Program-made: the position numbers and the translations under genes
The notes under the pieces: generated by a model
What the model was told of the DNA's origin: nothing
The model's input: only the letters and a program-made list of their open reading frames with translations
Databases searched by the model: none
Shown here: piece by piece, positions 15,458-50,884 of the stretch
How the letters are laid out: each line of letters starts with the position of its first letter
How positions within the stretch are numbered: the stretch's first letter is position 1
Source of the DNA: Escherichia coli
GTDB taxonomy: Bacteria > Pseudomonadota > Gammaproteobacteria > Enterobacterales > Enterobacteriaceae
DNA: 64,000 nucleotides
Direction: 5' to 3' (one strand)
NCBI RefSeq assembly: GCF_016903815.1
Contig: NZ_CP069973.1

Positions 15458-15460
15458 TTC

Positions 15461-18877: not shown

Positions 18878-18888
18878 AATTCATATAA

Positions 18889-20337: not shown

Positions 20338-20433
20338 TAATCATCCCGGGCTGCCAGCCCGGGAATTGTTTTATGAATATTTTTCTTTGTGAGTAACCGG
20401 AAAAAAGATAGCGAAATAAATTACTTTAATGAA

Positions 20434-22038: not shown

Positions 22039-22159
22039 AATAATTGTGTAAAAGCGATATTTCTGTCCGGCACTGGTCGCTGAACATGCCGTGACAGGTG
22101 AATTCATTATTTTGAATAATCATAAAGCCGCCACAAATGTAGCGGCGTAAACAGGAGCG

Positions 22160-22444
22160 TCATGATGTTTTCTTTCGTGACAGAAGAGAACGGCACATAC
22201 CGCCCGCAATCATTATCATCAGGAATAACATCCCCAGGCCAACGATTACTCTTAATGCCGGATGAACCCGATCGGCGAGAAAAAATAACTCCATCCCGAA
22301 ACCAATAACAAGCCAGACCAGCGCCATTCCGACGAGCCCTTTTAACAGCAATCTCACGATCCTCTCCTTCTGCGTTCTTAACGAAAATGCCTTACAATAA
22401 CAGCAGCCGGAGAAAGCAACGCTGGCTGCTGAACGGAATGACAT
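22160..22444 (-). CDS. small hydrophobic protein (hypothetical)
   Basis: 94-aa ORF with TM-like stretch LVGMALVWLVIGFGMELFFL; last gene of the WYL cassette string. Confidence 0.35.
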   Translation of the reverse strand: MSFRSAASVAFSGCCYCKAFSLRTQKERIVRLLLKGLVGMALVWLVIGFGMELFFLADRVHPALRVIVGLGMLFLMIMIAGGMCRSLLSRKKTS

Positions 22445-22496
22445 TTTACTGTTTTATGTTCTCTCAGTTTCTATCCTGACGCCGCCATTAATGGCA

Positions 22497-22763
22497 TTAC
22501 AGTTTATTCAGAATAAGGCAGGCGGCCCGGTTTAATGCAATAAACTCCTGCCAGCTGTACTGAGACTGATAATTCAGTAAATACTGGTCTTCAACCCGGC
22601 AAATCTGTGGGCGTTTATCATAAATTGCACACAAATGAGAATCAGTCTGATAGTGACGGCAAATACCGTCACCACGATCCAGACATTGCGTTTCACCCGC
22701 CCTGTTGACATGACGACAACAGGCCCCACACTGGTTACAGGGAAATGGAGGGTGTAATTTCAT
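22497..22763 (-). CDS. YkgJ-family Cys-cluster (zinc/iron-chelating) protein
   Basis: CNQCGACC ... C-x-C motifs in 88-aa ORF; 4-nt overlap with upstream gene. Confidence 0.7.
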   Translation of the reverse strand: MKLHPPFPCNQCGACCRHVNRAGETQCLDRGDGICRHYQTDSHLCAIYDKRPQICRVEDQYLLNYQSQYSWQEFIALNRAACLILNKL

Positions 22764-24331
22764 CGCTTATTTAACCAGTCACGAACAGAAGCCACATTTC
22801 CTGACTCAAACGGCAACGCAATCCCTCGTCGGCTGACTTCTTCTCTCAGCAGAAGTCCGCGCTCTATCTCACTGTTTACGCTATCCAGATGAAGTGAAAA
22901 ATGATTTAACGCGGCAGCATCAACAGAAAATTCCAGTGCAGTAAGTTCCACAAGATAGCGATCAAGTTCAGCATTGACTGCCTGAAAGTATTCCAGTGAC
23001 CGCTGGAATTTGTCCTTAAATTTGTCCAGAAATGCCCATACCCGCTGCATAACCTCGCTATATTCGAGATAATAATTCATCACCAGCCCGAGAATACCTG
23101 TCGTCAGCGCACCACAAAAGGCAGCAAGCTCTGAACCAAATGGAAAAATAAGGATCTGCGCCATCGCCTCATTTATCATCACCCCACCGGCAACAGCCAC
23201 ACCTGCTGCTATCAGTTTAGTGACCGCTTTGGCTAACTGCCCCGGCGATAATCCCTCCGGGTTAAATACCAGGACTTTAAAGGCCTGAACGAGGTTGTTC
23301 CACATTTCCCTGATAAGCCGGACAATCATTCTTTCCGTCGTCAGGAATATATTTAACAGCGTTGTGGTAATACCTGACAGTATCCCTCCGATGACACCAT
23401 CTTTAAAGGCAATTAAAAAAGAACTGAATTTTTCCTGTACTCGTTCCTGGCAGGCACGTAATGCTGACGTTATTTCGGACAGGCATTTGCCGGCGCAGAA
23501 TGAGTTCCGTTGCTGTCTGATAATATGCGGGATTCGTTCCCTCAGTTCGAACCAGATCTCGGCAAGAATAAGCCCCAGCATCTGTCGCGTCCCCATACGA
23601 AAACCGGAATTAAGTGAAGCACTGGCGACAGCAGTAGCAAACTTACTACTCAGGTAATAGCTCTGATTAATCGTGGTCTCGTATTTTTCCCGGGCATATT
23701 TATCAGCCCTTTCCATACGCTCAGTATCTGCATCAGCTTTTTTTCTCAGACTTATCAGACGTTTCTTTTCTTTTTCTGTCAGTGTTGCCTGAGATTCAAG
23801 CTCTGCTATCTGCCTTAACGTATCTTCTCTGTTTTTCTGCAGCGTGCAAATAAACGCATCCATTGAGTCTGCTTTCTTTGATTTATTGAGCGACTCATGA
23901 GTGAATGCCAGATTTGAAGCGTCATTTGCCAGTTCTGCACCATCCCGTTCAGCAAGAATTCTCCCCGGATCATCATGAATTTCTTTAGCGGAAATAATAT
24001 GATCCAGATTTTTTTTATCGTCTGAAGCAAACACTTCGCCTGTATATGCATCAGTAAGAGTCCCTGACTGATGTGCACGCTTTCCTTTCCGGTTCGTCGC
24101 GATGTAGTTCTCATGGCTGTGGTAATGATGAGAATCATAGTCGCCACGACCTTCATACCGCTGTCGCTCAGCCTCCGTGGCATAAATGCCATTACGCACA
24201 TTATGGATAGTGTCAACATCACCACCCTTACGATCATTTAGCAACAGAAAATCCAGCCCGAATGATGCAACCAGGCTCTTCACCATGGTCTGATGTAACT
24301 CTTCTGCCCAGTCAAATTTTTCCACATTCAT
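22760..24331 (-). CDS. hypothetical 523-aa protein, soluble His/Asp-rich N-domain plus C-terminal multi-TM region
   Basis: ORF translation; N-terminal motifs GGDVDTIHNV, DHIISAKEIHDDPGR; hydrophobic helices in C-terminal half. Confidence 0.6.
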   Translation of the reverse strand: MNVEKFDWAEELHQTMVKSLVASFGLDFLLLNDRKGGDVDTIHNVRNGIYATEAERQRYEGRGDYDSHHYHSHENYIATNRKGKRAHQSGTLTDAYTGEVFASDDKKNLDHIISAKEIHDDPGRILAERDGAELANDASNLAFTHESLNKSKKADSMDAFICTLQKNREDTLRQIAELESQATLTEKEKKRLISLRKKADADTERMERADKYAREKYETTINQSYYLSSKFATAVASASLNSGFRMGTRQMLGLILAEIWFELRERIPHIIRQQRNSFCAGKCLSEITSALRACQERVQEKFSSFLIAFKDGVIGGILSGITTTLLNIFLTTERMIVRLIREMWNNLVQAFKVLVFNPEGLSPGQLAKAVTKLIAAGVAVAGGVMINEAMAQILIFPFGSELAAFCGALTTGILGLVMNYYLEYSEVMQRVWAFLDKFKDKFQRSLEYFQAVNAELDRYLVELTALEFSVDAAALNHFSLHLDSVNSEIERGLLLREEVSRRGIALPFESGNVASVRDWLNKR

Positions 24332-24377
24332 GTTATTTCACTTCTTGTAAAGCCGGGCTTTAACGCCCGGTAAATCA

Positions 24378-25457
24378 TTAACTCCGGGATGAAAAATCAT
24401 CAAATTTCACAACCGAACTGGCCAGTACATCATCCAGCTCTTCCTTATTAATAACATTCATTCCATTATCATCCTTTTCCATTTCAATAACGTTATCTTT
24501 TATCACAGCCTCACCATTTTCCTGTTTCCGCGGTTTAAACAGTGGCGTTGTAATAATATCCGTCATAATAGCGGCCAGTGAATATCCATGGTCAATAAGC
24601 ATAATGATTTCATCTGATACATTGATATCCTGTTGTTCTGTAATAACAGAATGCATGGATTTAAGCGGCTCAAAATAGTGTTTAATAAATACAGCATGCA
24701 TTCTGTTCAGCGCAGCGAGAATTTCATCAACGTATTGATTAACTTTTGCAAAATGCTCCCGGGCCAGATTCATTTTCTTAACTGCCCGTTCAACTTTGCA
24801 GGCACACTGATGGGCATTTTCAAGAGCTTTCGTCGCGTGTCTGTCGTAAGCCCAGCCCGCAATGGCAATCAACGGTGCAGCCACTGCGGTGCCTAATACC
24901 ATTGCGCCGCCGGCCATTCCCATGCCCCCTGCCGCGAGAGAGCCCCCTCCAATTGCCGCCATCGTCGCGTTATAAGCCGCGGCACCAGAAAGCGCTGCAA
25001 TGGGTGTACCTGTGGAAGCCGCAGCAAATGCCATCACTCCGCTATACACAGCAAAACCCGCAGCAGCCCCGGAAACTCCGGCAGCTACGACCGTACTGAG
25101 ATATTCTGTTGCTGAAATGGCCAGGTTATGAATCTTATTGATGTTATGTTGCGGGACACTCAGTTTCAGGTCTTTATTGCCCTCTTTTTCCAGACGCGCC
25201 AGGAGCTCAGCAGCAATCCTGTCGAACTCACTGAAATCTTTACCAATCTCAAGCTCTTTATTTCCGAGCGTTGTTAATTTTGATGATGTCTGAGCTTCAG
25301 CCTGCTCAAATTTTCCTTTATGCTCCTCGTAACGCTCTTTTGCTTTTTCGAGCACATCCTCTGCTTCTGACTTTTTTTGATATCCATCGTAAGCTTTTTT
25401 TCCGCCGAATGCCGCAGCGCCGGCAGCCACACCCAAAATAATGAAAGGTAACGCCAT
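24378..25457 (-). CDS. hypothetical membrane protein with Gly/Ala-rich glycine-zipper-like TM segment
   Basis: N-terminal TM MALPFIILGVAAGAAAF, coiled-coil-like charged region, Gly/Ala-rich stretch; AGGAGG RBS. Confidence 0.6.
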   Translation of the reverse strand: MALPFIILGVAAGAAAFGGKKAYDGYQKKSEAEDVLEKAKERYEEHKGKFEQAEAQTSSKLTTLGNKELEIGKDFSEFDRIAAELLARLEKEGNKDLKLSVPQHNINKIHNLAISATEYLSTVVAAGVSGAAAGFAVYSGVMAFAAASTGTPIAALSGAAAYNATMAAIGGGSLAAGGMGMAGGAMVLGTAVAAPLIAIAGWAYDRHATKALENAHQCACKVERAVKKMNLAREHFAKVNQYVDEILAALNRMHAVFIKHYFEPLKSMHSVITEQQDINVSDEIIMLIDHGYSLAAIMTDIITTPLFKPRKQENGEAVIKDNVIEMEKDDNGMNVINKEELDDVLASSVVKFDDFSSRS

Positions 25458-35972: not shown

Positions 35973-36214
35973 AAAATGCATCGGTTGATCTCGATGGAAG
36001 GACACAACTGATAGATCATGTTCTTGGACTTCTTACTGAATACGGCATTGTGTTCAGTAAAAGCGCAACAGAATTACGCCCCAAATTACCGGCATTACTT
36101 GAGGATGCGGCGATGCTGTACCTGCGGATTGGTACATGCCGTCTGAACAATATGGCTCCAGAAAAATGGCTGTGAACCGCCCCGGGTTTCCTGGAGAGTG
36201 TTTTATCTGTGAAC

Positions 36215-37105
36215 TCAGGCTGCCAGATCATCGTTTCCGATGGAAGCATAATAAGCTTTTTCTGCTTCTGCCGGAGGAGTATGGCCCAGCCTTCCCAGCA
36301 ATCGTCGATTGTTATACCAGTCCACCCACGTTAGTGTGGCCAGTTCCACTTCTGCACGGTTTTTCCAGCTCTTACGGTGTATTACCTCCGCTTTGTAAAG
36401 ACCATTGATGCTCTCAGCCATCGCGTTGTCATACGAGTCGCCTGTACTCCCTGTTGATGCCAGTAATCCGGCTTCTTTTAGTCGCTCCGTATAGGCCAGT
36501 GACACATACTGAGAGCCTTTATCGCTGTGATGGATGGTGCCAGACGGACGACGGGCCCACAACGCCTGCTCCAGCGCATCCAGCACGAATGTCGTTTCCA
36601 TAGACGATGAGACCCGCCACCCCACGATGTATCCGGCAAACACATCAATGATAAACGCCACATAGACGAAGCCCTGCCATGTGCTGACGTAAGTAAAATC
36701 AGCCACCCACAGCTGGTCAGGTCGTTCTGCCACGAACTGACGGTTTACGCGGTCGCCTGCGGCAACGGCTTTCCGGCTGATGGTCGTACGGACCTTTTTA
36801 CCCCGGAGAACACCGGCAAGTCCCATAACCGCCATGAGACGTGCCACTGTACATCTGGCCACCCTGATTCCTTCCCGTAACAACTGACGCCAGACTTTAC
36901 GCACACCGTACACCTGATGATTTTCATCGTATACGCGCTGTATCTCTCTCTTCAGCCAGTCGTCGTGCTGCGCACGGGCACTGCGTTTATCCGGATGATG
37001 TCGCTGTTGCTGACAATGGTAATACGTTGACGGGGCAATATGCAGTTCGCTGCATACCGGTCCGACCCCGTACTGCTCACGCAGCTTATCCAGCAGTGGC
37101 ATCAT
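36215..37105 (-). CDS. insF: IS3 transposase OrfB (DDE integrase domain)
   Basis: 296-aa translation recognised as IS3 InsF. Confidence 0.85.
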
Positions 37106-37428
37106 TTTTTCCAGAGGCGGTCGAACTCCGCCTTCGCAAAATAAGCGGAAGCCTGGCGAAGGATATCGTTACTGCGGCGCAGTTCACGATTTTCACGTTC
37201 CAGCTCTTTCAGACGCTGACGTTCAGCGCTGGTGAGCCCACCATCACCGCCCCCGGTATCCCGCTCATGCTGGCGAACCCAGACACGCAGAGTCTCCGGC
37301 GTACAGCCAATCTTTGGAGCAATGGAACAAATTGCCGCCCACTGTGAGTCATATTCATCCTGACTTTCCAGAACCATACGAATCGCCCGCTGACGGACTT
37401 CGGGGGAAAAACGAGTATTTTTAGTCAT
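37102..37428 (-). CDS. insE: IS3 transposase OrfA (HTH)
   Basis: 108-aa translation [20 protein letters not shown]... recognised as IS3 InsE. Confidence 0.85.
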
Positions 37429-37453
37429 CCTGTTTACCTCTTTCTCAGGGAGT

Positions 37454-40400
37454 TTAGTCTCCAGGATTTCCGGGGCGGTTCAGCTGTTCATTAAAACGTT
37501 GTCCAGGCTGATCATAAAGTGCGCGTAATGTCTCCGCGGATGGCCGCGGTTGCATTTGCTGCATGCAGGGTTTCTGGTGGTAATCAAAATACTGTGGCAG
37601 ATGCTGGATCTCTGCTTTGTTTTCAATTACCCGTTGAAGGGCTCTTTGACGCAACTCTCTTGATGATTTGTCACGGATCGATTCCAATTGTAGCTGGCTG
37701 CCGCTACTAATTCGCTTACGAGCAGCATCAAAATCAAAGCGAATAGCCAATAGACTCGGCGTAGTCTCACTTAGCTGCAATTCCCCTAATTGCACTGATT
37801 CACGCTTATCTTTAATATAAACAATGATCTTATCATCAAGTTCAAAGCTGAGGTCAGCACCGGATTCCGTAGTATATGGGTAGAGTAAGCAACCACTCGG
37901 TGATTCCTGAAAGTCAGTAGAGTCGATGTTGACTATATCTCGTAGGTCTACTTCTGTATCAGATAATGCCTGCCATAACTCAATTGGGCTTGACTCACTA
38001 CTATCGAAGTCATCTTCATCCATCTCTTGATTAGGATTAGCTCGCTCAATGATGGCATCAATTACTGGCTCGAGGTTAAACAGTAGTTCAATAAAAGTAT
38101 TACGCTGATTAAGTGAGCCACGTTGTAATGAAAGTTGAGTATTAATTTTAGCCTGGGAATATTTACCAGCCTTTATACTTTCTTCGATCGATAATCCTTT
38201 TTCATACACTATTCTATTAATAGTGCGATTATCAGGATCTAAGTCTATCAATAGCCGCTCTCCTAGGCCAGTGATGTAACAACGCAATTCATGCGCAAAG
38301 CGTGGGTTAGATGACCAGTTACATTGAAAATAATAGATCCCATCATTTTGTTCTAGAAGCTTCACTTCTTGCGGCCAATCATCTGTGCCCCAGCAAACAG
38401 GAATTACCTTATCCTGTGACTCAGACGCCACAACTTGATTAATCTCAGCTTGTTCCGGTGCTCGAATTGACTGCAGCAAAGGATCGAGCGCGATAGGTAT
38501 ACCGTCAACGGTTTGTTTTGCGCGTTCTAGCTCAGCCTGCACCAGTACTGGCATATCTTCACTAAATAGCTCCTCCACCATACGATATACTGCAAAGCAA
38601 TCTCGCCCAAAAGCATCAGTACTTTCGGGATTCTCTGGCTGGTAGCGATTATCTGCAGTTAATTCATCACTGAATTCAAGCAATCCAATCAGAGTAATTA
38701 CTGTCTGCTCCCCGACTTGTACCAGCAGTTTCTCTGGGCAAAGATCTCCATGAGGTAACTGCTTTTCATGAAAAGCATGAATGGTGTTGATCAACTTTTC
38801 CGCAATTGTAAAACGTTGGGATTGTACTAACACGTTCTCAGCAATAAACTGTGACCACGGTAGGCCATCCACATACTCGCTCACTACATACAAGCCGCCT
38901 TGTCCTAATAGTCCATAGGACTGCACCTTAGGAGTTGGCAGATTTATATGCGTAAGCTTATCGATCCGTTGCTTAAAAGCGTGGATACGGCGGTTAACAC
39001 CAGGTTGTTGAGGGGTCAAAATAACACCATCCCACAATTTTACCTGCAGAGCTTTCCCACCTTGTTCACAGTGATAACTGATGCTGCCAGTCGTAGCAAT
39101 AGCAGCAAGAGCAGAGTAAACCATAGACAACTGTTCAGGAAGTGGAGGAAACTCAATTAACACACCAACGCTGTTCATCCCTTCGCGAAAGAATTTGTTT
39201 TGCTTTAATTCTTGATAAATCTGGTTAGCTTCATCAAATTCTTGGCTATGTTCCTTAGTAGCTGCATTAAACTCATTGAGCATTATGTCCGCACGTGGAA
39301 AGCGTTTACTTGGCTCAAGGTTAAGAGCTTGCTCAAACCAGCTATTTAGAATACCGCTAAAAGGATCAGTTAATGGAGCTCTCCATTCAGGCATCTGTCC
39401 AGGAGTCAGTAATGATTCACCTGCAAAACAAATACGATAAGCAATTACAGCCAACATGAATACATCTAGGCGATAGGGCTCAACTGCTTCTTCAAAAGCA
39501 TCTTCGGGCAAAATATATGGAGCACTTTGCAATGTCGGACGCAATGACTCTAGGCTATTATGTCCCTCCAGTGAGGCTGCGCCAAAGCCAGTAACGACAA
39601 TGCTCTTCTGATCCCCTGCGTACCATAGATTGTGCGGGTCAATATCACAATGACTGATACCCAAGCTATGTAATTCCGAGAATGGAGCTAATAATGCACG
39701 AACGCGATCAATACGCTCAGATTTACTCCATCCGTCAGCTTCGCTATCTAGAATCTCATCTAATCGGCTAAAACTACGGCGTAACTCATACAGCTCACGG
39801 GCATCATCAGTTATATCCTCCTCGGATAGTTCCCTTACAGCACGCAACATATAATCCTGCATAGTTGCGCTGCCATGACGAACTAGGCGACCGACTCGAG
39901 TCTCACGCAGAGCTATCTCAGCCCACAATGTTTGCATTGCGTTTGCTACACCCAAGGCATCAAAGTTCCACTGCCGTAGCAGACCTCTGTGTTGACTATT
40001 GTCTTTGTGGGTAGCCCTGAATTCGTTGTAGACCATGTGAGGGTGACTAAAGAATGGCTTATCGTTCGCAAGATAACCGCTTTCTTTTAGTGGCAAAGGC
40101 CTGACTTTTGGTCCTTCAAAGAAGGACTTAATTATAGGTAATGCCTCATCAGAATTTGGTCGAGGCTTTCCCCCTTCAAAAAGATGAAAAAAGTTAGTGT
40201 GTTGCACCAGCTTTTCGTAATTTTTTGGGTTACCTATAGTCAAGAATTCATCACGGGTATGAACATAGCGCCTCTCACTTAATGGCAAGTTTTCAGGACC
40301 AGCTGTGCCACACAGCACTACATGAGCCTCAACATGCAAAAAGTAACCCAGCTTACGAGATAACTCTTCCTGCAACAAATCTTTTAGTCGCAGTGCATGC

Positions 40401-40678
40401 TCACGCTTGATCTGATAGGGACTTTTGCCTCGTGACTTACCATTTTGCAGCCACTTCCCCCCTTCAAATGTGATGTTACCATTCCACTCTTTAAGCTCGA
40501 CTAATAGCAGACGGTCAGCAGTAATAATTAGCATATCGATTTCCATCGACCCTTGGCTATCAGTAACAACTAAGCCAGCATAGCCAAACCAACTATCTGG
40601 TAACTGCTTAACCATCATATCAACTGTTTTGGTTTCGCTGCGGTGCAGGCCAGCACCACCTACTATCTGATACTTCAC
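37454..40678 (-). CDS. 1074-aa protein with N-terminal NERD-like nuclease domain and two protein-kinase-like regions; 3' end runs into IS3
   Basis: NERD-like motif [21 protein letters not shown]; kinase catalytic-loop-like motifs [10 protein letters not shown] and [10 protein letters not shown]; last about 9 codons and stop lie inside the IS3 inverted repeat. Confidence 0.7.
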
Positions 40679-40885
40679 GTTTTCTCCTGCACCACTAAAT
40701 TTTTGTTGGTGGTAGTCCAGTAAAAATGGATGTAGTTATCTAAGACAGCGCATAGATTGTGCCTGCCTAACCCTAAAAAGTGTAATTATGAAAAGTAACG
40801 CTAGAAATTCTATACCGTTCGCAAAGAGAACACTTTTCAAAGATATATCATCATCTTGAACATGTCACTATAATGGTGAATCCAT

Positions 40886-41042
40886 AAGATGCGAACACCA
40901 CATCTTGTGCCACTCAGCAAACAGGCTGTAGCCATACTGATAAAACTTCAGACATGGGCAGTTGAAAATGGTCTGGTCTTTACGGGAGCACATGACCCGC
41001 GTAAACCAATCAGCGAAAACACCGTAAATAAGGCCCTTAGGT
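40886..41042 (+). pseudogene. integrase gene fragment (about 157 bp copy of 19903-20060)
   Basis: Near-identical by eye to the internal segment of the integrase at 19075-20337. Confidence 0.7.
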
Positions 41043-41145
41043 GCCCTTGAACCACTATATCCAGACAGCCGTTGAGCTTAAGTTAACGTTACCGAGTGAC
41101 GTTGATATTCCCTCGGTGAGAGATAACCAAGGCACCATGAGGATG

Positions 41146-41773
41146 CTATTCGTTATAGTGTTCGAACGCCTCCGCAAGGTTTTTTACTGCCGTTAACACG
41201 TCCGGTTTAGGTATGATACTGATGTAATCGCTCTTCATCGTTTTCACGAACCGTTCTCTCATTCCATTACTCTGAGGGCTACTGACTGCCGTCGTGCAGA
41301 GCTCCAGATTCAACTCTCTGGCGAACTGCCGTGTTTCATGAGTTGTATAAGCCGAACCGTTATCGGTCAGCCACTGGATGGGCCATCCCGGTCTATCGCC
41401 AAAGCGTTTTTCTATCGCTCCTGACATGACATCCTGCACCGTTGCTTTGCCATAACCTCCCGTGCTTGCGGCCCAGTCTATGGATTCAAGATCGCAACAG
41501 TCCAGTGCGAACGTGACACGCAGTTTTTCGTCATCATCACAACCGAACTCAAAGCCATCGGCACACCAGCGCGGGTCGCTTTCCTTCACCGATATTCGGG
41601 CCTTTATGTTCCCTCTGCGGTCGTGAAGGTTTGTCATGTAATAACAACAGGTTATTCTCGCTCATTATTCGATAAACGCGATTTGCATTCACGAACTGCA
41701 GTCCTTCGTTAAGACTGCCGTCTGAGAATAGCCCGGACACGACGATAGCCATCGAATCGCTGAACAGCGTCAT
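41146..41773 (-). pseudogene. IS2-like (IS3 family) transposase OrfB remnant, frameshifted
   Basis: Translation resembles IS2 InsD ([32 protein letters not shown]...AEAFEHYNE); split over two frames. Confidence 0.6.
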
Positions 41774-41879
41774 TCGGCAGGCGATAAAGAAGGTGTCGTT
41801 ACGGGGAAGTCATCTTCACAGAGATTTTCAGTCAGTTAGCATTACCGACATTCATTCACCAACTTACCGGAGATAATCA

Positions 41880-42209
41880 ATGTCAAAACCCCGATGGACC
41901 ATTGAACAGAAAAGGCAGCACGTTGCTGCCTGGCGCGCCAGTGGTCTTACACGTCAGCAATACTGTGAACTCAACGATATTCCCTTCACATCACTTCGCG
42001 AATGGCCGCAGGATGTCGCAAAAGCTGAACGCCGGGCAAATGAACCGACCGTTCTTCCCGTTCATATTGCGCCACCACTGCATGCTGATGTACCACAGCC
42101 CGTCACGAATGAGCCAGTCACGCTCTTCCTTCCCGGCGGAGTACGGATGTGCTGTCAGCCGTCACAACTTACCGATGTCTTCAGGGCGCTCAAATATGCT
42201 CAGTCCTGA
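41880..42209 (+). CDS. IS66-family accessory protein Orf1 (TnpA)
   Basis: Small HTH-like ORF preceding the IS66 Orf2-like gene. Confidence 0.55.
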   Translation: MSKPRWTIEQKRQHVAAWRASGLTRQQYCELNDIPFTSLREWPQDVAKAERRANEPTVLPVHIAPPLHADVPQPVTNEPVTLFLPGGVRMCCQPSQLTDVFRALKYAQS

Positions 42210-42588
42210 TAATGTCTTCATCGCGATTAAACCTGTTGACATGCGCCGGGGCATCGACACACTGACGCAGTATATACAGGATGAACTCCGGTCGACATGG
42301 CATGAGGGAGCCGCCTTCGTCTTTGTTAACAAAGTCCGTTCGCGTATCAAAGTTCTCCGGTGGGATAAACACGGGGTGTGGTTGTGTACCCGCCGTCTGC
42401 ACAAAGGCAGCTTCCGCTGGCCACGTGCAAATGATGCTGCCTGGCACCTAACTCCCGACGAGTTTAACTGGCTGATTGCCGGTGTTGACTGGCAGCAGGT
42501 TAAGGGACATGACCTGACGAAATGGGGCTGGCAGAATGAACCTGAACTGCGCCCTGAAAACACGCAAAATACACTGCTAACTCAGTGA
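42196..42588 (+). CDS. IS66-family Orf2 (TnpB)
   Basis: Translation MLSPDNVFIAIKPVDMRRGIDTL...RLHKGSFRWP typical of IS66 Orf2. Confidence 0.7.
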   Translation: MLSPDNVFIAIKPVDMRRGIDTLTQYIQDELRSTWHEGAAFVFVNKVRSRIKVLRWDKHGVWLCTRRLHKGSFRWPRANDAAWHLTPDEFNWLIAGVDWQQVKGHDLTKWGWQNEPELRPENTQNTLLTQ

Positions 42589-42594
42589 AAAATA

Positions 42595-43480
42595 ATGAAT
42601 ATCCGTATCTGGAGTGGTATACTCCCCTGTATGGATATCTCCGCTCTCAACACCACGAATGACATCGAAAAACTGCGTGCTATGGCACTTACCATGGTAC
42701 AAAAAGTCATGTCGGAGAATGCCGAAAAAGAGCGGGAATTACTGGAGAAAAGCCGGCGCATCCAGCTTCTGGAAGAAATGCTGAAACTGGTTCGTCAACA
42801 GCGCTTCGGTAAAAAATGTGAAACGCTGGCTGGTATGCAACGCTCCCTGTTCGAAGAGGATGTTGATGTCGATATCGCCGCGCTTACCGCACATCTGGAT
42901 AAACTGCTCCCGCAATCCCCTGAAGAAGACGAAAAAGCGTCCCGTTCACGCCCGATACGCAAACCCTTACCGGCTCATCTTCCACGGGTGGAAAAAATTA
43001 TCCAGCCGGACACTGACCATTGCCCTGAATGTGACGAGCCGCTGCACTATATCCGTGATGCGGTGAGTGAAAAGCTGGAGTATATTCCCGTTCACTTCGT
43101 GGTGAACCGTTATGTCCGTCCGCAATACAGTTGTTCCTGTTGCCAGAAGGTGTTCAGCGGTGAAATGCCGGCACATATCCTCCCGAAAAGTGCCGTTGAG
43201 CCATCAGTCATCGCACAGGTGATCATCAATAAATACGGTGACCACCTGCCTCTGTATCGCCAGCAACAGGTCTTTGCCCGTTCAGTGTCGGGCTGCCCGT
43301 CAGTTCGATGGCTGACATGGTTGGCGCGGCGGGTGCCGCATTATCTCCCCTGGCGGCGTTACTCCATCGCGAGTTGATAAACCGTCCGGTGGTGCATGCA
43401 GATGAGACTACCCTGAAGATCCTGAACACTAAGAAAGGCGGTAAATCCTGCTCCGGTTATCTGTGGGCAACCAGCCTTCC
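42595..43480 (+). pseudogene. IS66-family transposase (TnpC), frameshifted and 3'-truncated
   Basis: Zn-ribbon CPECDEPL ... CSCCQKV, then HADETTLKILN in another frame; homology ends near 43480. Confidence 0.65.
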
Positions 43481-44274
43481 GCCTCGTCCGGATCCGCTGT
43501 TTCCAGTGTCATCAGGAGCCGGCTGCATGCTTCCCCTGCCGTTTTACCCAGCGTGGCCCGCTGCGAAAGACGGATGCGGTTTCCGGCACCCAGCCCACTG
43601 CGGTTATCGATATGGACCTTAACCGGATCGGGTTCGGTGATAAGTGCGCGGGTATCCGGTGCCAGCAGACTCACCAGAGCCCGGATGCCTTCAGCATTGC
43701 GGGTGGGTAATCGCATGGCACCCAGTAAGGCCAGGAAACGGGAAACCGGCGTTGCCACCTGTTCAGCGGTGCCGGGTATACCGAGTCCGACCAGTCCCAG
43801 CAGACACTGCGATGTGGCATCGCGCCCCCCCTCCTCGAAAGTGGCCGGATACGCATATTTTCGCCAGATCCGGTAGTACTGGGTGGTGATGCGGTGGCTG
43901 AAAATATCCAGAAATGAGGTGAGCGCCTCATGTCCTTCACGGCGCTGCGCAATATCATCCAGCCAGGACGTCGGCAGAGGTGAGTCCACCCCATACATTC
44001 CGAGAAATGTCGTGCGGATCGTTGGGGGTAATGTCGGACGGTCTTCGTCGATCTCCACCGCTTTCAGGGTGCTGACCGGGAATCCCATCCCGGGCCAGGG
44101 CCTGAATCGCACCGGGTCATCGCCCGGATGGCTGGTCGTGCCCAGTTTTGGCCCGTCCGGATTTTCCAGCTCCAGCAGCTGGCAGAAACGATAAAAACTG
44201 GCCCGCCAGATATCGTTGTTAAGGGCCAGGGCCTGCGTCAGCCCGGTACGTGCTGGCTGTGATTCTCTTTTCAT
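43429..44274 (-). CDS. tssG: type VI secretion baseplate protein TssG, C-terminally truncated
   Basis: N-terminal FYRFCQLLELE...DPVRFRPWPGMGFPVS pattern of TssG; abuts IS66 remnant. Confidence 0.6.
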   Translation of the reverse strand: MKRESQPARTGLTQALALNNDIWRASFYRFCQLLELENPDGPKLGTTSHPGDDPVRFRPWPGMGFPVSTLKAVEIDEDRPTLPPTIRTTFLGMYGVDSPLPTSWLDDIAQRREGHEALTSFLDIFSHRITTQYYRIWRKYAYPATFEEGGRDATSQCLLGLVGLGIPGTAEQVATPVSRFLALLGAMRLPTRNAEGIRALVSLLAPDTRALITEPDPVKVHIDNRSGLGAGNRIRLSQRATLGKTAGEACSRLLMTLETADPDEAEGWLPTDNRSRIYRLS

Positions 44275-45929
44275 CTCAGTCGTTTCCCTGTGGGTTGCAG
44301 TACCAGTGTGAGCTGGTTGAAAAGGTGAACATCAGCATAGAGCGCAAAGAAACGGTGCAGCATCTCCCCGAAGAGATTCACATCGCCCTCGCCGGCAAAA
44401 TTATCCATATTCAGCGTGACCTCAATGTCCACGCCACGGAGCATAAAGCCCTTTTCAAAACGGCGGATCAGGGTGTGCTTCACAGCAACGATGGCTTCAA
44501 GCCGGCGGCGGTTCATTTCATCGTCGGTCCAGTCATAGAGCGCCAGCGTCCCCCGCAGCACCTCCGGATTGTCCATCATGCTGAGAAAGTTTGATCCGAG
44601 GTGACTCATCACCCGCCAGTGAAACCGGTCATTTGCCGGGGGATACAGTGGCATCGTCGGTGCGGTCAGGTTCAGGACTCTGACGGGGACTTTGCCGGTT
44701 TTGACCACCCTGTCCAGGAGCGTACTTTCCAGCGCCCTGCGCGGAAGCTGCCCGTTGGTCGCGGTGATTCGCATCGAGAGGGACTCCGGTTTATCGGACA
44801 ACTGCTCCAGCTCGAACGAACGCCCCCCGAGAACTAACCATGTGTCATACAGGCCGGAGGGTCCCCGTTTCACACGGGTGTGGTAATAACGTTCAGGAGC
44901 ATCGTGGCGCATCATACCGCCCCGGTGCCGGAAGCTGGTGAACGGGACATAAGGGTGTCTGCCGTTCTTCACCGAGCCGTGAATGTTATCGACGCTGTAA
45001 ATTTCGGTGTGACCATCCTGAAGACGCAGCGGCCTGAGCAGGTACTCGTTATCCAGCGGGTTAAGGATCAGCGGGTCGGCTTCCAGGGTAAAGAGATTGA
45101 TAACCGGCGCACAGTGCAGGCGGAAGTTTTCTGTCTCAAAAGGCAAACCGGATGACCAGGCTTCACTGAGCACAATGTCGATTTCAAACCAGGTACTGGC
45201 CGCAGTGAGCCCAATGGTGTCGAGGCCGCGCAGTTCAACAAACATAAACTTCGGACGGAAGCTGAAATACTCCAGCAGCAACTGGTAACCACTGAAGGCT
45301 GTATCAGCTTTCTTCCACAGGCAGTCATTGTCGTCAAAGCCCATGGGTCTGCACCAGCCGTCAAACTGACGACGTCCGGTATATGTCCCGGCATGACGCG
45401 CATACATGGCATGTACACGCCGGGTCATTGCCAGATGTAGCGCAGCACTTACCGGCGCCTCTGCGTTAAGAAAAATGGCGACTTTGTCGATCCCGGCTTT
45501 ACTCCAGTCCACTTTTTCAGGGCATTCGAAGCGCAGACGGATAGCAGAGCGGCCATCGGATTCAGTATGGAGACGGGCATCTGCAAGGTGCAGCGGTTGT
45601 AGCAACACATCGCGGGTCGCCCGGTACTGGCAGGCGGTTTTATGCGGCCCGACAGGACGGGACAGAACGGAAAAGCCTTCAGCCAGTATTTCGGCCTGAC
45701 GCAGACTACGCCAGTCAGGCGAGAACTCAACGATGGCCAGCGACGGGATAGTCCGCATATAGTGCGGCCACAGCAGACTCACCAGACCTTCGGTGAGCTC
45801 CGGCAGGTCATCATCCAGCTTTTCACGCAAACGTCCCATCAGGAAGGCAAAGCCTTCAAACAGACGTTCCACACTGGGATCGCAGGCACCAGGCTTATCC
45901 AGATTCAGCATTGCTGACGTAATCCACAT
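44271..45929 (-). CDS. tssF: type VI secretion baseplate protein TssF (N-terminus possibly frameshifted)
   Basis: VERLFEGFAFLMGRLREKLDDDLPELTEGLVSLLWPHYMRTIPSLAIVEF pattern of TssF; upstream 73-aa ORF is in a different frame. Confidence 0.6.
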   Translation of the reverse strand: MWITSAMLNLDKPGACDPSVERLFEGFAFLMGRLREKLDDDLPELTEGLVSLLWPHYMRTIPSLAIVEFSPDWRSLRQAEILAEGFSVLSRPVGPHKTACQYRATRDVLLQPLHLADARLHTESDGRSAIRLRFECPEKVDWSKAGIDKVAIFLNAEAPVSAALHLAMTRRVHAMYARHAGTYTGRRQFDGWCRPMGFDDNDCLWKKADTAFSGYQLLLEYFSFRPKFMFVELRGLDTIGLTAASTWFEIDIVLSEAWSSGLPFETENFRLHCAPVINLFTLEADPLILNPLDNEYLLRPLRLQDGHTEIYSVDNIHGSVKNGRHPYVPFTSFRHRGGMMRHDAPERYYHTRVKRGPSGLYDTWLVLGGRSFELEQLSDKPESLSMRITATNGQLPRRALESTLLDRVVKTGKVPVRVLNLTAPTMPLYPPANDRFHWRVMSHLGSNFLSMMDNPEVLRGTLALYDWTDDEMNRRRLEAIVAVKHTLIRRFEKGFMLRGVDIEVTLNMDNFAGEGDVNLFGEMLHRFFALYADVHLFNQLTLVLQPTGKRLR

Positions 45930-46168
45930 TCAACAGTGCAATACGCAACCGTTCTTCCGGCCCTGCCTCTGTCTGCCGGCACTCATCCAGGACATCCTGC
46001 CATTGCCGGCGAAGACGGGGCGATTCATTCAGTTCTGTAAAACAGTATTTATCCGCCAGATAATCAATTCGTGTACGCATACTGAAAAGAATTCCGTATA
46101 AAGATTCAGCAGACAAAACTTTATCAGTCTGTAAAAATTAACGGAAGAGTCGATATTTCTCCCGGTCA

Positions 46169-46711
46169 TCACCGGATGATTGTTGCAATAACCAGTGGCA
46201 TCAGAGACTGAACAGCCGTTTTTAACGCAACGTATTGCTCTGATGTATCAGGCCGGGTAACCCGAAAACACCTTTCCACCCGACATTGTCCGCCCGTATC
46301 CATCCCCCGCCAGGTCTGCTGCAGTAAATCCACCACTTGCGAACATTGTTCATCAACTGTGACACTGGCTCGCGGGTGACAAATACTCGTCTGGCTGAGC
46401 AGCAACAGGCATCGCATTGTTGCTCCTCCATGTTGTTCCCGCAACCAGCGTAATACCACCGGCGATGATGGACTGGTCGTGTGATTACGCTCAGTAATAC
46501 GTTCATAAAAGGAAGTACAGAATGCATGAATCTGTTGCCCGTTGATGTTTCCTTCTGCCGAATGGAGCGTGAAGTGAAATGCCAGCAGACGCGGCCAGTG
46601 GTCCACCCCCTGCTGAACAAAACGCCGGATTTCCCCCGGCGCTGAAAGTAAGGCTTCGGTTATTTGCACTATTTTACCCCTGTGAATTTTGTTAAGCCGG
46701 TGCAGACACAC
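46169..46711 (-). CDS. hypothetical protein
   Basis: 180-aa ORF only; no recognisable motif. Confidence 0.3.
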   Translation of the reverse strand: MCLHRLNKIHRGKIVQITEALLSAPGEIRRFVQQGVDHWPRLLAFHFTLHSAEGNINGQQIHAFCTSFYERITERNHTTSPSSPVVLRWLREQHGGATMRCLLLLSQTSICHPRASVTVDEQCSQVVDLLQQTWRGMDTGGQCRVERCFRVTRPDTSEQYVALKTAVQSLMPLVIATIIR

Positions 46712-46936
46712 GGAAAACGCACATCAACACCAGCACAGTACGATACAAACACCAGTGACTGACGGGACGAAAGGAATAACGAATCAGTCAGGAAAGAGCT
46801 ACAACCTGCTGGCTGACCGGAGAGGGTCAGCAGGAAAATGAACGGTAATGTCGCCAGCACCAGGGACAGAGCTGATTTCCGCAATACCAGCGCCGGCATT
46901 TTGCACATTGCCAGCGTACCGGCATCACAACTCGTT

Positions 46937-47170
46937 TCATGCTGCTCCTCGTGATTCCTCAATTCGCTGCTGCATCCACTGCTCTACTTCACTTTTGTAC
47001 CAGCGGCTGCTGCGCCCCAGTTTGATGGGTTTAGGGAAATGGCCTTCACTGATCAGCTTGTAAAACCATTTGTCGGTCATACCAGTGAAGCTGGTGATGT
47101 AGTTCATGTCGATCAGGGGATCGTCGGCACGCAGCAATACGCTGTCGTGACCTGTCATTGAGGTCAACAT
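46937..47170 (-). CDS. alpA: AlpA-family phage transcriptional regulator
   Basis: ISEGHFPKPIKLGRSSRWYKSEVEQWM matches AlpA HTH pattern; start may be internal. Confidence 0.75.
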   Translation of the reverse strand: MLTSMTGHDSVLLRADDPLIDMNYITSFTGMTDKWFYKLISEGHFPKPIKLGRSSRWYKSEVEQWMQQRIEESRGAA

Positions 47171-47238
47171 GGTCAGAATGTCCTCTGTGAGATTTATGAA
47201 TGTTGGGCAAATGCGGGTGAATCTGCTGAGCTGAGCTT

Positions 47239-47841
47239 TCAGAGCTGGCCTGCTACGGGATACCAGGGATTACCGGCGAGGTAACGGGCTTCCGGATCGC
47301 GCACACCACGACGATCGCGGGCGAAATCACTGAACGCCCATATCAGCTCTTTGAGTCTCTCTTCGCAGTCCGGTGAACAACTGTCCAGCACCACATCCCG
47401 GGTGATCTGCTTCTGGTACGGTGCTGCTTCACCCGGTGATGCGAAGCCCAGTACGTTGCTCCAGGCATCCAGAATCAGCCGATCCAGTTCAGGGCCGTCG
47501 AAATACTCCTGTCTGACGCACAGCACCACGTGGTATTCCGGTTTTTCAGGATGACGTGTCAGGAGCCAGCAGAGGTCACGTCCGGGTGTTGCATTCATCA
47601 GCGCACTGACGGTTTCGATAAAGGCCATACCGAACCAGGTTTTTCTGTCGCTGAAGATGTTGCCATGTTCCCCCGGCAGACGAAGCAGGATCCGCCGTAT
47701 TCGGGAGCAGGACTGCTCGCGCAACACACGGTTGAGAACGCCGATGATTTTGTTCTGATAAGATGGCCAGAAGGGGGCCAGGCTATAGTCGAAATAAGGG
47801 ATAGCATTCATAAGATATGCTCCGTTATGCGCAGCCCACAA
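47239..47841 (-). CDS. inovirus Gp2-like (YagK/YfjJ family) protein
   Basis: Shares YHVVL..R motif pattern with the paralogs at 48069 and 51308. Confidence 0.55.
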   Translation of the reverse strand: MWAAHNGAYLMNAIPYFDYSLAPFWPSYQNKIIGVLNRVLREQSCSRIRRILLRLPGEHGNIFSDRKTWFGMAFIETVSALMNATPGRDLCWLLTRHPEKPEYHVVLCVRQEYFDGPELDRLILDAWSNVLGFASPGEAAPYQKQITRDVVLDSCSPDCEERLKELIWAFSDFARDRRGVRDPEARYLAGNPWYPVAGQL

Positions 47842-48068
47842 TGCGTCCTGCCCGTGAATAAGCTGACGTGTTATGGTTTGCGGATGGGGTTGATGGAATA
47901 AGTGAAGAACCGGGGCAGAACGGGAAGATCAGGTCACCGACAAGGGACAGAACACCGGATGTGGTTCAGAGTGAATGATCTCCGTTGACTTCAGTTCACA
48001 TCATTAAGCAAGGCGGTAAGGTTTTACCGACGGAATGTTTCCAGGACAGGAAGCTCAGGATTTAAGCT

Positions 48069-48635
48069 TCAGAAGTGAGGCTTACGAGGACGCCCTGCAG
48101 CAGGTCGTTCAGGAACTTCACTGCAACCGTATGCGCACAGTCCGTCTTTTTGCTCTTCTTTCGCCAGATAATGCAGGACACCGCGAATATTATCGATGCT
48201 CCCGGGATCGTTATGACGCACGGGAATGTTGATGTTGTATGTATAATGCGGCTGATATGTACAGCGGTGTGCCGAACCGCTGTTATGCGTAATAGACTGC
48301 CAGCATTCCGTAATCCGCTCCGCAAAGGGATATATTTTTTTAACCCTCTGACGATCGAGCCAGAAAACCGCATGCGCATGAAAACCATGATCAGCCGTCC
48401 ATTCAATCACCCAGAAGAAACCAACGATATTTTCAAATTGTTCCACCTGCTCCAGCAGCATACGCAACTGCAATTCAAGCCAGCGATGATCAGGTTGTAA
48501 GAAATCAGGCGTATCTTTCCTGTAGAAGAAATCCATGCGTAAGGCCCGCAGGCGGGAATAGCGTGCGACCAACTGATTGATGTGATTGTCAAGTAAAGCG
48601 GTAAAAAACCAGTTTGGTGTGTAAGATTTAGGCAT
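48069..48635 (-). CDS. inovirus Gp2-like (YagK/YfjJ family) protein
   Basis: LRALRMDFFYRKD ... FHAHAVFWLDRQ motifs. Confidence 0.65.
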   Translation of the reverse strand: MPKSYTPNWFFTALLDNHINQLVARYSRLRALRMDFFYRKDTPDFLQPDHRWLELQLRMLLEQVEQFENIVGFFWVIEWTADHGFHAHAVFWLDRQRVKKIYPFAERITECWQSITHNSGSAHRCTYQPHYTYNINIPVRHNDPGSIDNIRGVLHYLAKEEQKDGLCAYGCSEVPERPAAGRPRKPHF

Positions 48636-50179
48636 GCTGATGACTCCTGAAAGTTAATGACGTTTTAAGTGCTGTAAACGAATTAATGCTTTCGCTCATA
48701 ATCAGATCTAAAACGGTAATAACTTACAGACGGTATTTATCAGGCATGCTGTAACAGAATGGATACGTCGGTTATTAACGACACACAGCGTTGTGCTGAA
48801 GGGTATGAGTTATCTGATGGCATTGTCTATAGAGATGAGATAAACGAGGTGCGAAGAAAATACAGATTCAATACAACACAGTGAAATACAGAAAAATACG
48901 AACTGTAATCCCGCTGCCAGGCGGTTAGGAAACATATTACAACTATAAGCTCATGGTTTGTAAATTTGCTCTCAGTGAGTCTGAAAAAACGTTTATAAGG
49001 TCACCACAATAAACTCACACGCGCTTATTCAATCTGTTCTCCAGGATATGAACGTTAACGACACACGATAGCATAAGACAACATACAATGGATGAATAAT
49101 TTTCACCCAGTACCTTAAACAATACAACCGGCAACAAATATAATCAGAAATTCACTCTGTTAATTCTGTTGTTTATCCTGCGCTGTTAAACATGACGGAA
49201 CCATGGATACCTTATCAAAGAGTAAGCATTCAGTTAATCAGTAATGACAGAGAAATTGATGTTCACCAGAATAGTTAAAACACTTCAGATAAACAATCAT
49301 TGTTAAGCAAATACGGTTCATAATGGATAAATTAGAATCAATTACTGTTTTACTGAAGATGAGAATAGATGAATATCAACAATAGCGTAGTAGAGAATAA
49401 CTTACCTGAACATCATATGAGTTACAGTAGTTATGATTGAGGGATGGAGTGAATACGATAACAAGAGTAATACTAATGGAATGTGTAAAGATTGAGAGTG
49501 AGTGAAGACAGGAAGTAAATAACAATAGAGATTGTATGAAAAAGGGAGTGAATAAAGAATATATAAAGAATAAATATAATTATAGTAATAAACCTAAATT
49601 AAAATCATCCTTGTTTGATGAGTAAAAATAATTCTAGAAAATGAATCTGTCTGAAAACTCTTTCTCAGAGATTAACCGATCAGATGCTCAACGGACTCAA
49701 TAAATTGGCTGAGTCAGGTTACCTCATCCACACTCTATTTGTTTCTAGAAGGATCTACCATTTTGTTCATCTACCGGAACACATCAATTTAGTAACTCGA
49801 TAATATCGGTTATGTAGATATTTATCGTTGCTACCAATGCCTAGATTATTATTCTCCAAGTATTTTCTTGACTTACAGGCTAATTTTGAAACAAATGTCA
49901 TGCTATTTTAGGAAAAGAACCTATGCAAAAGTCTGCTATGAGCGAGGAGCAGATATTCATCTGGTATACAAAGACAATATCGCTTAAGTCATCAGTGCTG
50001 CCACTTTAACCACTAGCTCTGCTCTTTTTGGACTTTTGAGCTAAAAATTAAATCTGACAGTGTGATAAGGTGCAAGTTTCTGAAAATACGCCAGTTGTTT
50101 TACACTCAAAAGCCCCCATTACTATCTGATGTTAATGGCGCAGCAGTTATCTTTCAGATTATTAAGGGGAAACAAGAGT

Positions 50180-50884
50180 ATGGCAAGATGTACAGCTCCT
50201 GTACGTGGACATAGCTCAGCAGCAGCTGCTGCTGCCTGTCCCGCATGTCGTAATCGCAGTGGTTATCGCCGCAGTAGCTACAGTTATGATAGTTACCCTT
50301 CTTACTCATCAGGCTCTAGCGGTGGCGGAAGTTATGGAGGCAGTAGCGGTGGTTCCAGCAGCAGCGCGAAGCCACGTTGGTCAAAATCAGGGTCTTCCGT
50401 TTCTTACACAACAGCCCAAGTACAATCACTCACACCAATTCGACAAGCGGTAGAGAAACTTGCCATTGAGCAACCTGATCTGCGTGATGTCTTTCTTTGC
50501 CATGCTTGGGATGACCGACAAGGTATTGCCAAAGAGTTACACGATTTGCTCGAAGCGGCAGGTGTCAAAGTATGGTTCAGCGAAAAGGATCTTGCCCTTG
50601 GTGTTCCGATGATGCGTGCCATTGATAAAGGATTAGCAAACTCTCGAATCGGCTTGGTTTTAGTGACACCTGCATTGTTAAACCGTCTTCCTAAAGAAGG
50701 CGTTGCTGATAAAGAACTTTCCGCCTTACTGGCAGGCAACCAACTCGTTCCCATCGTGCATAACACGACGTATGAAGCTCTCCGTAATGTCAGTCCTTTG
50801 CTTGCATCCCGAAGCGGCCTCGACACGGGAGAAGATACATTGGCAGTTGTTGCAACAAAAATTGCAGAGCTGATCACTGTTTAG
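50180..50884 (+). CDS. TIR-domain protein with Ser/Gly/Tyr-rich low-complexity N-terminus
   Basis: RBS aagggga then ATG; TIR-like motifs DVFLCHAWDD, VWFSEKDLALG, SRIGLVLVTPALL. Confidence 0.7.
   Translation: MARCTAPVRGHSSAAAAAACPACRNRSGYRRSSYSYDSYPSYSSGSSGGGSYGGSSGGSSSSAKPRWSKSGSSVSYTTAQVQSLTPIRQAVEKLAIEQPDLRDVFLCHAWDDRQGIAKELHDLLEAAGVKVWFSEKDLALGVPMMRAIDKGLANSRIGLVLVTPALLNRLPKEGVADKELSALLAGNQLVPIVHNTTYEALRNVSPLLASRSGLDTGEDTLAVVATKIAELITV

Follow-up and report, generated by a model that had tools for sequence, protein, structure and literature searches.

A truncated mkoA gene beside IS1203 in an Escherichia coli pheV island is very probably the remnant of an IS-mediated deletion

Insertion sequences of the IS3 family do not always have matching duplications at their sites. 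Matching duplications, 3–4 bp long, were found at only 21 of 47 IS629 sites (PMC3271280), and accounts of IS629 in E. coli O157 and its relatives include both IS629/IS1203-associated deletions and IS629 copies without a duplication (Ooka 2009; Kusumoto 2011, as summarized in PMC9943667 and PMC3271280). Deletions next to IS629 range from a few nucleotides to >40 kb, and IEE is active in microhomology end-joining (PMC9943667; bioRxiv 10.1101/2023.06.07.543989). In the Lenski long-term lines, insertions of IS150, also of the IS3 family, were followed by growing adjacent deletions, with no duplications (PMC11708052). In the anti-phage system Mokosh, defence is abolished by mutants of the helicase ATP site and of the PLD (bioRxiv 10.1101/2022.05.11.491447). 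Here, we describe a locus at which such an element and a Mokosh gene meet, in a stretch of 64,000 nucleotides from E. coli (contig NZ_CP069973.1 of assembly GCF_016903815.1; hereafter, the window), and compare it with 5426 complete E. coli genomes.

The insertion sequence occupies positions 36173..37482 on the minus strand (1310 bp), exactly the span in which the original prediction had seen an IS3 with both of its inverted repeats. It is a complete IS3-family element, but its 100% full-length match to copies that many E. coli genomes and plasmids carry under the annotation 'IS3-like element IS1203 family transposase' identifies it as IS1203, an isoform of IS629, and not as IS3 itself. The window holds a single copy, which is 99.5% identical to an O157 Sakai copy annotated as IS629/IS1203; a near-full-length IS1203 copy is present in 3042 of the 5426 complete genomes. 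The element starts with TGAACCGCCCCGG and ends with CCGGGGCGGTTCA, and its termini are imperfect inverted repeats with 5'-TG...CA-3' ends that read TGAACCGCCCCGG... at both sides, with 13 terminal bp matched, the next 3 mismatched and 9 more matched (22/25), a correspondence far beyond chance. Since the transposase is encoded on the minus strand, the window-right repeat (37458..37482) is IRL and the window-left repeat (36173..36197) is IRR when the element is read in its own direction. As is typical of the IS3 family, orfA (37102..37428, minus strand; 108 aa) and orfB (36215..37105, minus strand; 296 aa from the first ATG, carrying the DDE/rve catalytic part by Pfam) overlap in -1 phase, with an A6 slippery run at about 37104-37110 and a frameshift-stimulating structure, the ALIL pseudoknot (37031..37147, minus strand; Rfam RF01497, 121.5 bits, E 4.5e-31). 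PGAP annotates an identical IS1203 copy as a 404-aa programmed-frameshift product, which is matched by Pfam HTH_Tnp_1 and rve.

A reading frame for a NERD-domain protein kinase (37454..40678, minus strand; 1074 aa), which we call mkoA', runs into the element and, as originally predicted, is ended by it. With the IS ends placed at 36173 and 37482, its TAA (37454..37456) lies 27 nt inside the IS and is not a native stop: residues 1-1065 (37483..40678) are native, and the last nine, LNRPGNPGD, are IS-encoded. The right flank of the IS is the interior of a 4959-bp gene (WP_000877066.1; 1652 aa), the window matching the corresponding locus of strain 222 (L002) at 100% over 37483..50086 (L002 12001..24604). 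Uninterrupted alleles, which the original prediction had proposed to seek in related isolates, are present in 70 of the 5426 complete genomes. Their 1652-aa product matches the PADLOC MkoA profile PDLC03921 with 1305 bits (residues 2-1642 on profile positions 2-1598 of 1607), a 515-aa protein encoded downstream matches PADLOC MkoB at 1e-61, and Pfam AAA_11 (1062-1382) and AAA_12 (1402-1609) are found in the intact protein only, with a Walker A motif at residue 1084. By these matches, the intact gene is assigned to MkoA of the type I Mokosh anti-phage system, composed of NERD, kinase and Upf1-like helicase parts and followed by mkoB. In the MkoB of the relatives, neither a Pfam domain (PLD included) nor an HxK motif was found.

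The native part of mkoA' is 100% identical to residues 1-1065 of intact MkoA and retains the NERD domain (residues 14-122), a Pkinase match at 317-418 (37.8 bits against a cut-off of 31.7) and a second, sub-threshold kinase-like region at about 585-670. It lacks 587 of the 1652 residues, including the entire Upf1-like helicase that characterizes type I Mokosh. A tblastn search of the window recovered MkoA residues 1-1065 only, and MkoB, which in type I Mokosh adjoins mkoA, was found nowhere in the window. Reduced to a NERD-kinase stump without helicase and without MkoB, the type I Mokosh system of this genome should be non-functional, as far as domain content and the published mutants of other Mokosh systems can indicate; the supposition that a defence gene had been inactivated would accordingly hold. 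The stump itself is 100% conserved, and at least 40 sequenced samples have short-read contigs encoding this 1074-aa product; carriers of the allele include SRR33769094, SRR32901199 and SRR33769049.

The tetramer GCTG is indeed common to both flanks of the element (36169..36172 and 37483..37486), but its reading as a target duplication made by transposition into this gene is contradicted by comparison with other genomes. The left GCTG follows the C-terminal remnant of an IS66-family transposase (approximately 35987..36172, plus strand; ..CRLNNMAPEKWL|RYVIEHI*, read from the empty-site translation in Ecol_517), the original target of IS1203, which we take to be IS66 TnpC from the IS66 C-terminal motif. 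This insertion site, whose two sides we denote A and B, lies beside the scr sucrose operon, just downstream of it, in the pheV island, and on the side of the IS66 remnant the window matches locus L004 (22995..25001) at 100%. Of the 5426 genomes, 44 have the empty site, A-GCTG-B with one GCTG, at 100% identity, and the occupied site, A-GCTG-IS-GCTG-B, is found in strains 2779, 222, 103, 98210 and 98224; the left GCTG of the window is one copy of this true 4-bp duplication. The right GCTG is what native mkoA has at the breakpoint (12001-12004 of L002 in strain 222), where the uninterrupted gene reads ..CCATTAGCT GCTG TTCATT.., and could also be a 4-nt microhomology joint. With the left GCTG assigned to A|B and the right one to native mkoA, the pair is not a target duplication in mkoA; by these alignments, it does not come from one target site and is not the trace that a simple insertion leaves.

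Unlike the inverted repeats, the shared GCTG is not beyond chance. GCTG is the fourth commonest tetramer in the window (0.72%), and if the deletion had ended at random within the relevant 13.4 kb, a 4-bp match would be expected in 0.5% of cases and some match of 3-5 bp in 2.6%, so that the identity of the two flanks needs a coincidence of 0.5-2.6% or a microhomology step, which we infer. In the available part of Rump et al., no IS629 target consensus is given that could account for GCTG. Direct insertion of an IS3 into the gene, with GCTG duplicated and the native C-terminus alone replaced, would produce an intact IS between identical tetramers, as expected of a family that makes 3-4-bp duplications (PMC3271280), but can be practically dismissed. 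The IS-less reconstruction, in which the flanks are joined with one GCTG, exists in none of the 5426 complete genomes (0/5426), nor does the A-IS-mkoA arrangement (0/5426), and the two flanks are neighbours in none of them; the IS66 remnant next to scr that forms the left flank has its own empty site in 44 genomes, and the native gene runs 587 codons further, all absent from the window. In-silico excision of the IS with removal of 0-5 bp of duplication was also tried; the resulting ORFs reached only 1089-1116 aa, and none has an equivalent in other genomes.

The sites that the window's IS joins lie 14.7-15.9 kb apart in its relatives. In strain Ecol_517, the position of the IS is occupied by 14,667 bp, and in strain 222 the A|B site and the mkoA breakpoint are about 15.9 kb apart; the total loss is about 14.7-15.9 kb, depending on which of the two serves as reference. 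It comprises genes for an HTH regulator, a sugar-phosphate isomerase, RidA and an MFS transporter, IS66/IS3-type elements, mkoB and the 3' 1.76 kb of mkoA. The native C-terminus had been correctly predicted to be lost, but the loss is far larger than a replaced end, extending from 587 of 1652 residues to mkoB and the intervening genes. Neither the missing 3' part of mkoA, nor mkoB, nor a second IS1203 was found elsewhere in the window. IS end 37482 abuts mkoA directly at codon 1065/1066; compared with Ecol_517, 222 and 2779, an intact IS terminus adjoins DNA that ancestrally lies kilobases off, and what stood between the two is missing.

Two other strains carry related arrangements. The complete genome of strain 5283, from the same clone, has the same left junction, with a right endpoint corresponding to window position 41840 and all of mkoA lost. 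In strain 2779, IS1203 is present twice in direct orientation, at A|B with GCTG on either side and again directly against mkoA; what the window lacks is the stretch that separates these two copies. The IS|mkoA junction of strain 2779 lies 3 nt from that of the window (IS|GTTCATT vs IS|GCTGTTCATT), so that sister strains carry two distinct junctions. Both forms are confirmed in independent reads: the window-type junction occurs independently in at least 40 short-read samples, and the 1073-aa form of strain 2779 was found again in Logan reads and in a further NCBI draft. An assembly error in strain 2779 was rejected on the latter grounds. As for the window, its arrangement has no exact counterpart among the 5426 complete genomes, and both junctions occur separately elsewhere; because no sampled complete genome shares the exact arrangement, both junctions on one IS copy are documented by the window's assembly alone. 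The true genome could then have had two IS1203 copies, as in strain 2779, with the intervening DNA dropped across the identical 1.3-kb repeat during assembly, as the uniqueness of the combination and the separate occurrence of each junction would allow. We consider such an artefact very unlikely: strain 5283 has a comparable, even larger deletion at the same IS, and the window shows no sign of collapse. Even if it were true, mkoA would be truncated at the same base, as in at least 40 samples.

Taken together, an IS1203-mediated deletion, whether an adjacent deletion or IS-IS recombination, and not a simple insertion, very probably left this Mokosh remnant, a judgement that applies to the IS-mediated deletion with its remnant and not to the sub-mechanism. 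First, IS1203 entered the IS66-transposase remnant downstream of scr and truly duplicated 4 bp (GCTG) there, as the empty and occupied sites document. In the window, the DNA past this IS copy is gone, and IS end 37482 is fused to mkoA. For the loss, we would put at roughly even chances a transposase-driven, one-sided adjacent deletion anchored on IS end 37482, either by aberrant strand transfer of the cleaved IS end into mkoA or by strand switching or end-joining into mkoA at the 4-nt GCTG microhomology. A somewhat less probable route involves two copies: a second IS1203, next to IS66 tnpA/tnpB, would have fused to mkoA with a deletion of about 9 kb, and RecA-type homologous recombination with the directly oriented A|B copy would have removed the remaining roughly 7-8 kb, one hybrid IS staying behind. 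Strain 2779 is nearly the required intermediate, with two direct IS1203 copies and intervening DNA equal to the window's loss, and if the mkoA junction had arisen only once, the 3-nt proximity of the breaks in two strains would be accounted for. The junction of strain 2779, however, is IS|GTTCATT and not the IS|GCTGTTCATT of the window, an intermediate combining the 12001 junction with the B region was not seen, and on this route the two flanks would share GCTG purely by chance (0.5%). The window as a literal descendant of strain 2779 by IS-IS recombination was rejected: because the two junctions differ by 3 nt and both are read-confirmed, the window is not derived from strain 2779 itself. Between adjacent deletion and the two-copy route, the IS1203 copies involved do not discriminate: they are all 100% identical, so that no hybrid signature is visible.

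At the mkoA side of the junction, the octamer GCTGTTCA (37483..37490) matches the abutting IS terminal octamer GCGGTTCA at 7 of 8 positions in the same orientation, and both known IS|mkoA junctions lie inside it. We think it improbable, though worth stating, that GCTGTTCA, in mimicking the IS tip GCGGTTCA, forms a sequence-directed hot spot for IS1203 end-joining, or that the stump has a helicase-independent activity; if the hot spot were real, the clone would lose Mokosh repeatedly and predictably. The octamer was also set against the usual rule that strand transfer takes place 3 nt outside the opposite end, but the geometry gave no clean fit, and the resemblance is recorded as an observation only.

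An IS-mediated deletion of this kind is a known type of event, and the case is one of ordinary genome decay that leaves the current understanding of IS biology and of Mokosh unchanged. For annotation, mkoA' is to be listed neither as a defence system nor as a novel NERD-kinase architecture: judged against the intact allele, the 1074-aa 'NERD domain-containing protein kinase' of the window and its counterpart in the RefSeq record of strain 2779 are best described as mkoA pseudogene remnants. For method, an IS between identical tetramers can sit on a deletion, and the duplication is to be checked against the empty site first. For genome dynamics, the compared arrangements suggest that a single IS copy is wearing down the pheV defence island by steps in a clinical E. 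coli clone, in an order of events that we infer.

The locus resembles the IS629 deletions of O157 and its relatives in having the same element (99.5-100%), an exactly kept IS end and a kilobase-scale adjacent loss, and more than half of the IS629 copies catalogued likewise have no matching duplication. It differs from them in its host, a non-O157 strain with an ExPEC-like pheV island, and in flanks that happen to share the same 4 nt and so mimic a duplication. As in the IS150 deletions, the IS has no true duplication, and its junction is fixed on one side with variable nested endpoints on the other (intact in 222, then the window and 5283); unlike the Lenski lines, these are natural isolates, in which the order of events is reconstructed and not observed over time. 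In comparison with type I Mokosh (Millman et al. 2022; PDLC03921, PDLC03923), the intact allele of the relatives encodes a full-length MkoA with kinase and Upf1-like helicase, followed by MkoB, but this MkoA has an N-terminal NERD domain as well and this MkoB has no Pfam PLD match and no HxK motif, whereas the copy in the window has neither helicase nor MkoB.

A complete IS1203/IS629 element of the IS3 family, exactly 1310 bp long and the single IS1203 copy in the window, occupies positions 36173..37482, as originally predicted. It starts with TGAACCGCCCCGG and finishes with CCGGGGCGGTTCA, and its terminal inverted repeats agree at 22 of 25 positions. On the minus strand, it carries orfA (37102..37428), orfB (36215..37105), and an ALIL frameshift pseudoknot (37031..37147; Rfam, 121.5 bits); an A6 slippery run is present. 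The predicted name, IS3, holds for the family but not for the element: among 5426 complete E. coli genomes, full-length copies with 100 per cent identity carry the annotation 'IS3-like element IS1203 family transposase'. Of these genomes, 3042 hold a near-full-length copy, and the window element shares 99.5 per cent identity with the copies of O157 Sakai, which are annotated IS629/IS1203. IS1203 is an isoform of IS629 (PMC3271280).

GCTG does flank the element on both sides (36169..36172 and 37483..37486), but the pair only resembles a target duplication in the NERD/kinase gene, which is mkoA of the type I Mokosh anti-phage system. A 1200-bp in silico join, from which the IS and one GCTG were removed, is absent from all 5426 complete genomes; its right half alone matches, at 100 per cent, within a gene annotated 'AAA domain-containing protein'. 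The native breakpoint in mkoA reads ..CCATTAGCT GCTG TTCATT.., and the right GCTG is therefore plain mkoA sequence. In strain 2779, an IS1203 copy with a left flank identical to that of the window is followed by GCTG and then by different DNA (GCTGCGTTACG..) toward an HTH regulator. A 1000-bp join of these flanks (A, the left flank, a single GCTG, and B, the DNA originally beyond the IS) is found at 100 per cent identity in 44 genomes; because this is the true empty site, GCTG is a genuine 4-bp duplication at A/B. The target there is the C-terminal end of an apparent transposase remnant (..CRLNNMAPEKWL/RYVIEHI, then the stop; window 35987..36172), which we take, from its C-terminal motif, to be of the IS66 family and which sits immediately downstream of the scr sucrose genes. 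The length of the duplication agrees with the 3–4 bp given for IS629 (PMC3271280). In unrelated genomes, many IS1203/IS629 copies align 6–17 nt into the left flank of the window, some also into GCTG, and these alignments suggest that IS66-family elements may be a recurrent target of IS1203/IS629 or may be co-mobilised with it.

On the right, the truncated ORF (1074 aa; 37454..40678, minus strand) ends at a TAA stop 27 nt inside the IS, so that MkoA residues 1–1065, at 100 per cent identity, are followed by the IS-derived LNRPGNPGD. In strain 222, the intact gene has 4959 bp (1652 aa, WP_000877066.1), and a gene for a 515-aa protein comes after it. Positions 12001..24604 of the strain 222 locus (L002) equal window 37483..50086 at 100 per cent, and megablast finds nothing in the window that corresponds to 8691..12000, which hold the rest of the large gene and the downstream gene; in tblastn of the window, the large protein matched at residues 1–1065 only and the 515-aa protein left no trace. 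Uninterrupted alleles, which the original prediction proposed to look for, were found: the gene runs across the breakpoint in 70 complete genomes. Both truncations are genuine: short-read contigs from at least 40 samples carry the 1074-aa product (one contig ends ..AATGAACAGC/TGAACCGCC..), and about five samples have a 1073-aa form, of the strain 2779 type.

In PADLOC, the full length of the intact 1652-aa protein aligns with the MkoA model (1305 bits), and its 515-aa neighbour (L002 8691..10238) with the MkoB model (1e-61). In intact MkoA, Pfam places a NERD domain (residues 14–122), a protein kinase (317–418), a second kinase-like stretch (about 585–670), and the Upf1-type SF1 helicase domains AAA_11 (1062–1382) and AAA_12 (1402–1609); the Walker A motif GPPGTGKT begins at residue 1084. 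Type I Mokosh comprises a helicase-plus-kinase protein and a separate PLD nuclease, and mutants of the helicase ATP site or of the nuclease lose defence (Millman et al., bioRxiv 10.1101/2022.05.11.491447). MkoB of strain 222 has no Pfam match and no HxK motif, leaving the expected PLD-nuclease assignment unconfirmed for this variant. Unlike in type I Mokosh, the window protein breaks off just ahead of the helicase and no MkoB is present, which makes the locus a Mokosh remnant; judging from domain content and the published mutants, it is probably non-functional. The native C-terminus was indeed replaced, as predicted, but the loss was understated, as it takes in the entire helicase as well as the partner gene.

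In Ecol_517, which is without either IS, 14,667 bp separate the A/B site from the mkoA breakpoint, and the 1310-bp IS takes the place of this entire segment in the window; measured on strain 222, the distance is 15,904 bp. On the mkoA side, the missing DNA takes in the 3'-terminal 1.76 kb of the large gene and the 515-aa gene; the rest codes for RidA, an MFS transporter, a sugar-phosphate isomerase, and an HTH regulator, and includes IS66 and IS3-type elements and, according to the relative, either a NotI-family restriction-modification pair or a group II intron. The original observation is thus confirmed and its interpretation partly supported: an IS3-family element does cut a defence gene and supply a foreign stop, not by simple insertion but with the deletion of some 15 kb. 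IS1203, IS-mediated deletions, and Mokosh were each known before, and the sister allele already has an annotation in RefSeq.

Relatives with otherwise identical backbones differ in the content of the defence island: between mkoB and the IS66 remnant lie, in Ecol_517, genes for a NotI-family restriction enzyme and a cytosine methyltransferase (L004 14003..15869) and, in strain 222, the group II intron in their place (L002 5579..7087). The right-hand 45 kb of the window are entirely pheV genomic island, running to kpsF; tRNA-Phe (18802..18877; pheV context, by yqgA and speC) is followed by genes for a tyrosine integrase and a phosphoethanolamine transferase (about 19075..22107). Decay extends to other parts of the island, since the type VI secretion baseplate genes tssG and tssF are pseudogene fragments split by an IS66 element (about 43465..45917 and 41880..42588). 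About 10 kb from the Mokosh remnant, a TIR-domain protein gene (about 50180..50884; WP_001389195.1 in strain 222) may be another defence gene of the same island, and beyond it lie a CbtA/YeeU toxin-antitoxin pair and an antirestriction gene. In the core-genome part, Rfam detects naRNA4, a REP-type nucleoid-associated RNA (6906..6976, minus strand; 60.9 bits against a gathering threshold of 59.5).

GCTG is the fourth most frequent tetramer in the window, and an endpoint placed at random in the 13.4 kb available would imitate a 4-bp duplication in 0.5 per cent of cases and one of 3–5 bp in 2.6 per cent. Alternatively, the shared GCTG may mark a joint made through 4 nt of microhomology, as has been proposed for deletions associated with IEE. 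The mkoA breakpoint octamer GCTGTTCA matches the now abutting IS tip GCGGTTCA at 7 of 8 positions, and just 15 plus-strand sites in the 13.4 kb, this one included, match so well; this likeness, with a second junction 3 nt away, hints at a breakpoint hot spot. The octamer does not fit cleanly into the known strand-transfer geometry.

The A-IS-mkoA arrangement occurs in none of the 5426 complete genomes, and the relatives compared, near-identical to the window (100 per cent in the flanks), form a series of states. Strains 222, 103, 98210, and 98224 have the IS at A/B with GCTG on both sides and intact mkoAB. Strain 5283 shares the left junction of the window, and the end of its IS (L003 8701..10010, equivalent to window 36173..37482) is joined to window position 41840, about 4.4 kb further on, with two nt (CA) shared; mkoA is entirely gone, and the integrase fragments are lost along with the mkoA remnant. 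We favour, at about an even chance, an adjacent deletion that would have started from the A/B copy, one-sided and anchored on the IS end. Strain 2779 carries both the A/B copy and a cluster of IS1203 pieces (L001 7688..10310): positions 1..978, then 1310..976 inverted, then a full copy fused to mkoA at GTTCATT, 3 nt past the window junction. Its two internal joints show a 3-bp GAA/TTC inverted duplication, and the nest has the look of an inversion in which two abutted IS ends attacked a copy of their own. Recombination between the A/B copy and a second IS1203 copy already fused to mkoA is a possible, if on balance somewhat improbable, route to the window arrangement; because all IS1203 copies are identical, the sequence does not separate the two deletion routes. 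Across these relatives, one IS junction stays constant and the endpoints opposite it vary and are nested, a pattern also described for the IS150 adjacent deletions of the Lenski lines (PMC11708052) and for deletions next to IS629 (PMC9943667; bioRxiv 10.1101/2023.06.07.543989).
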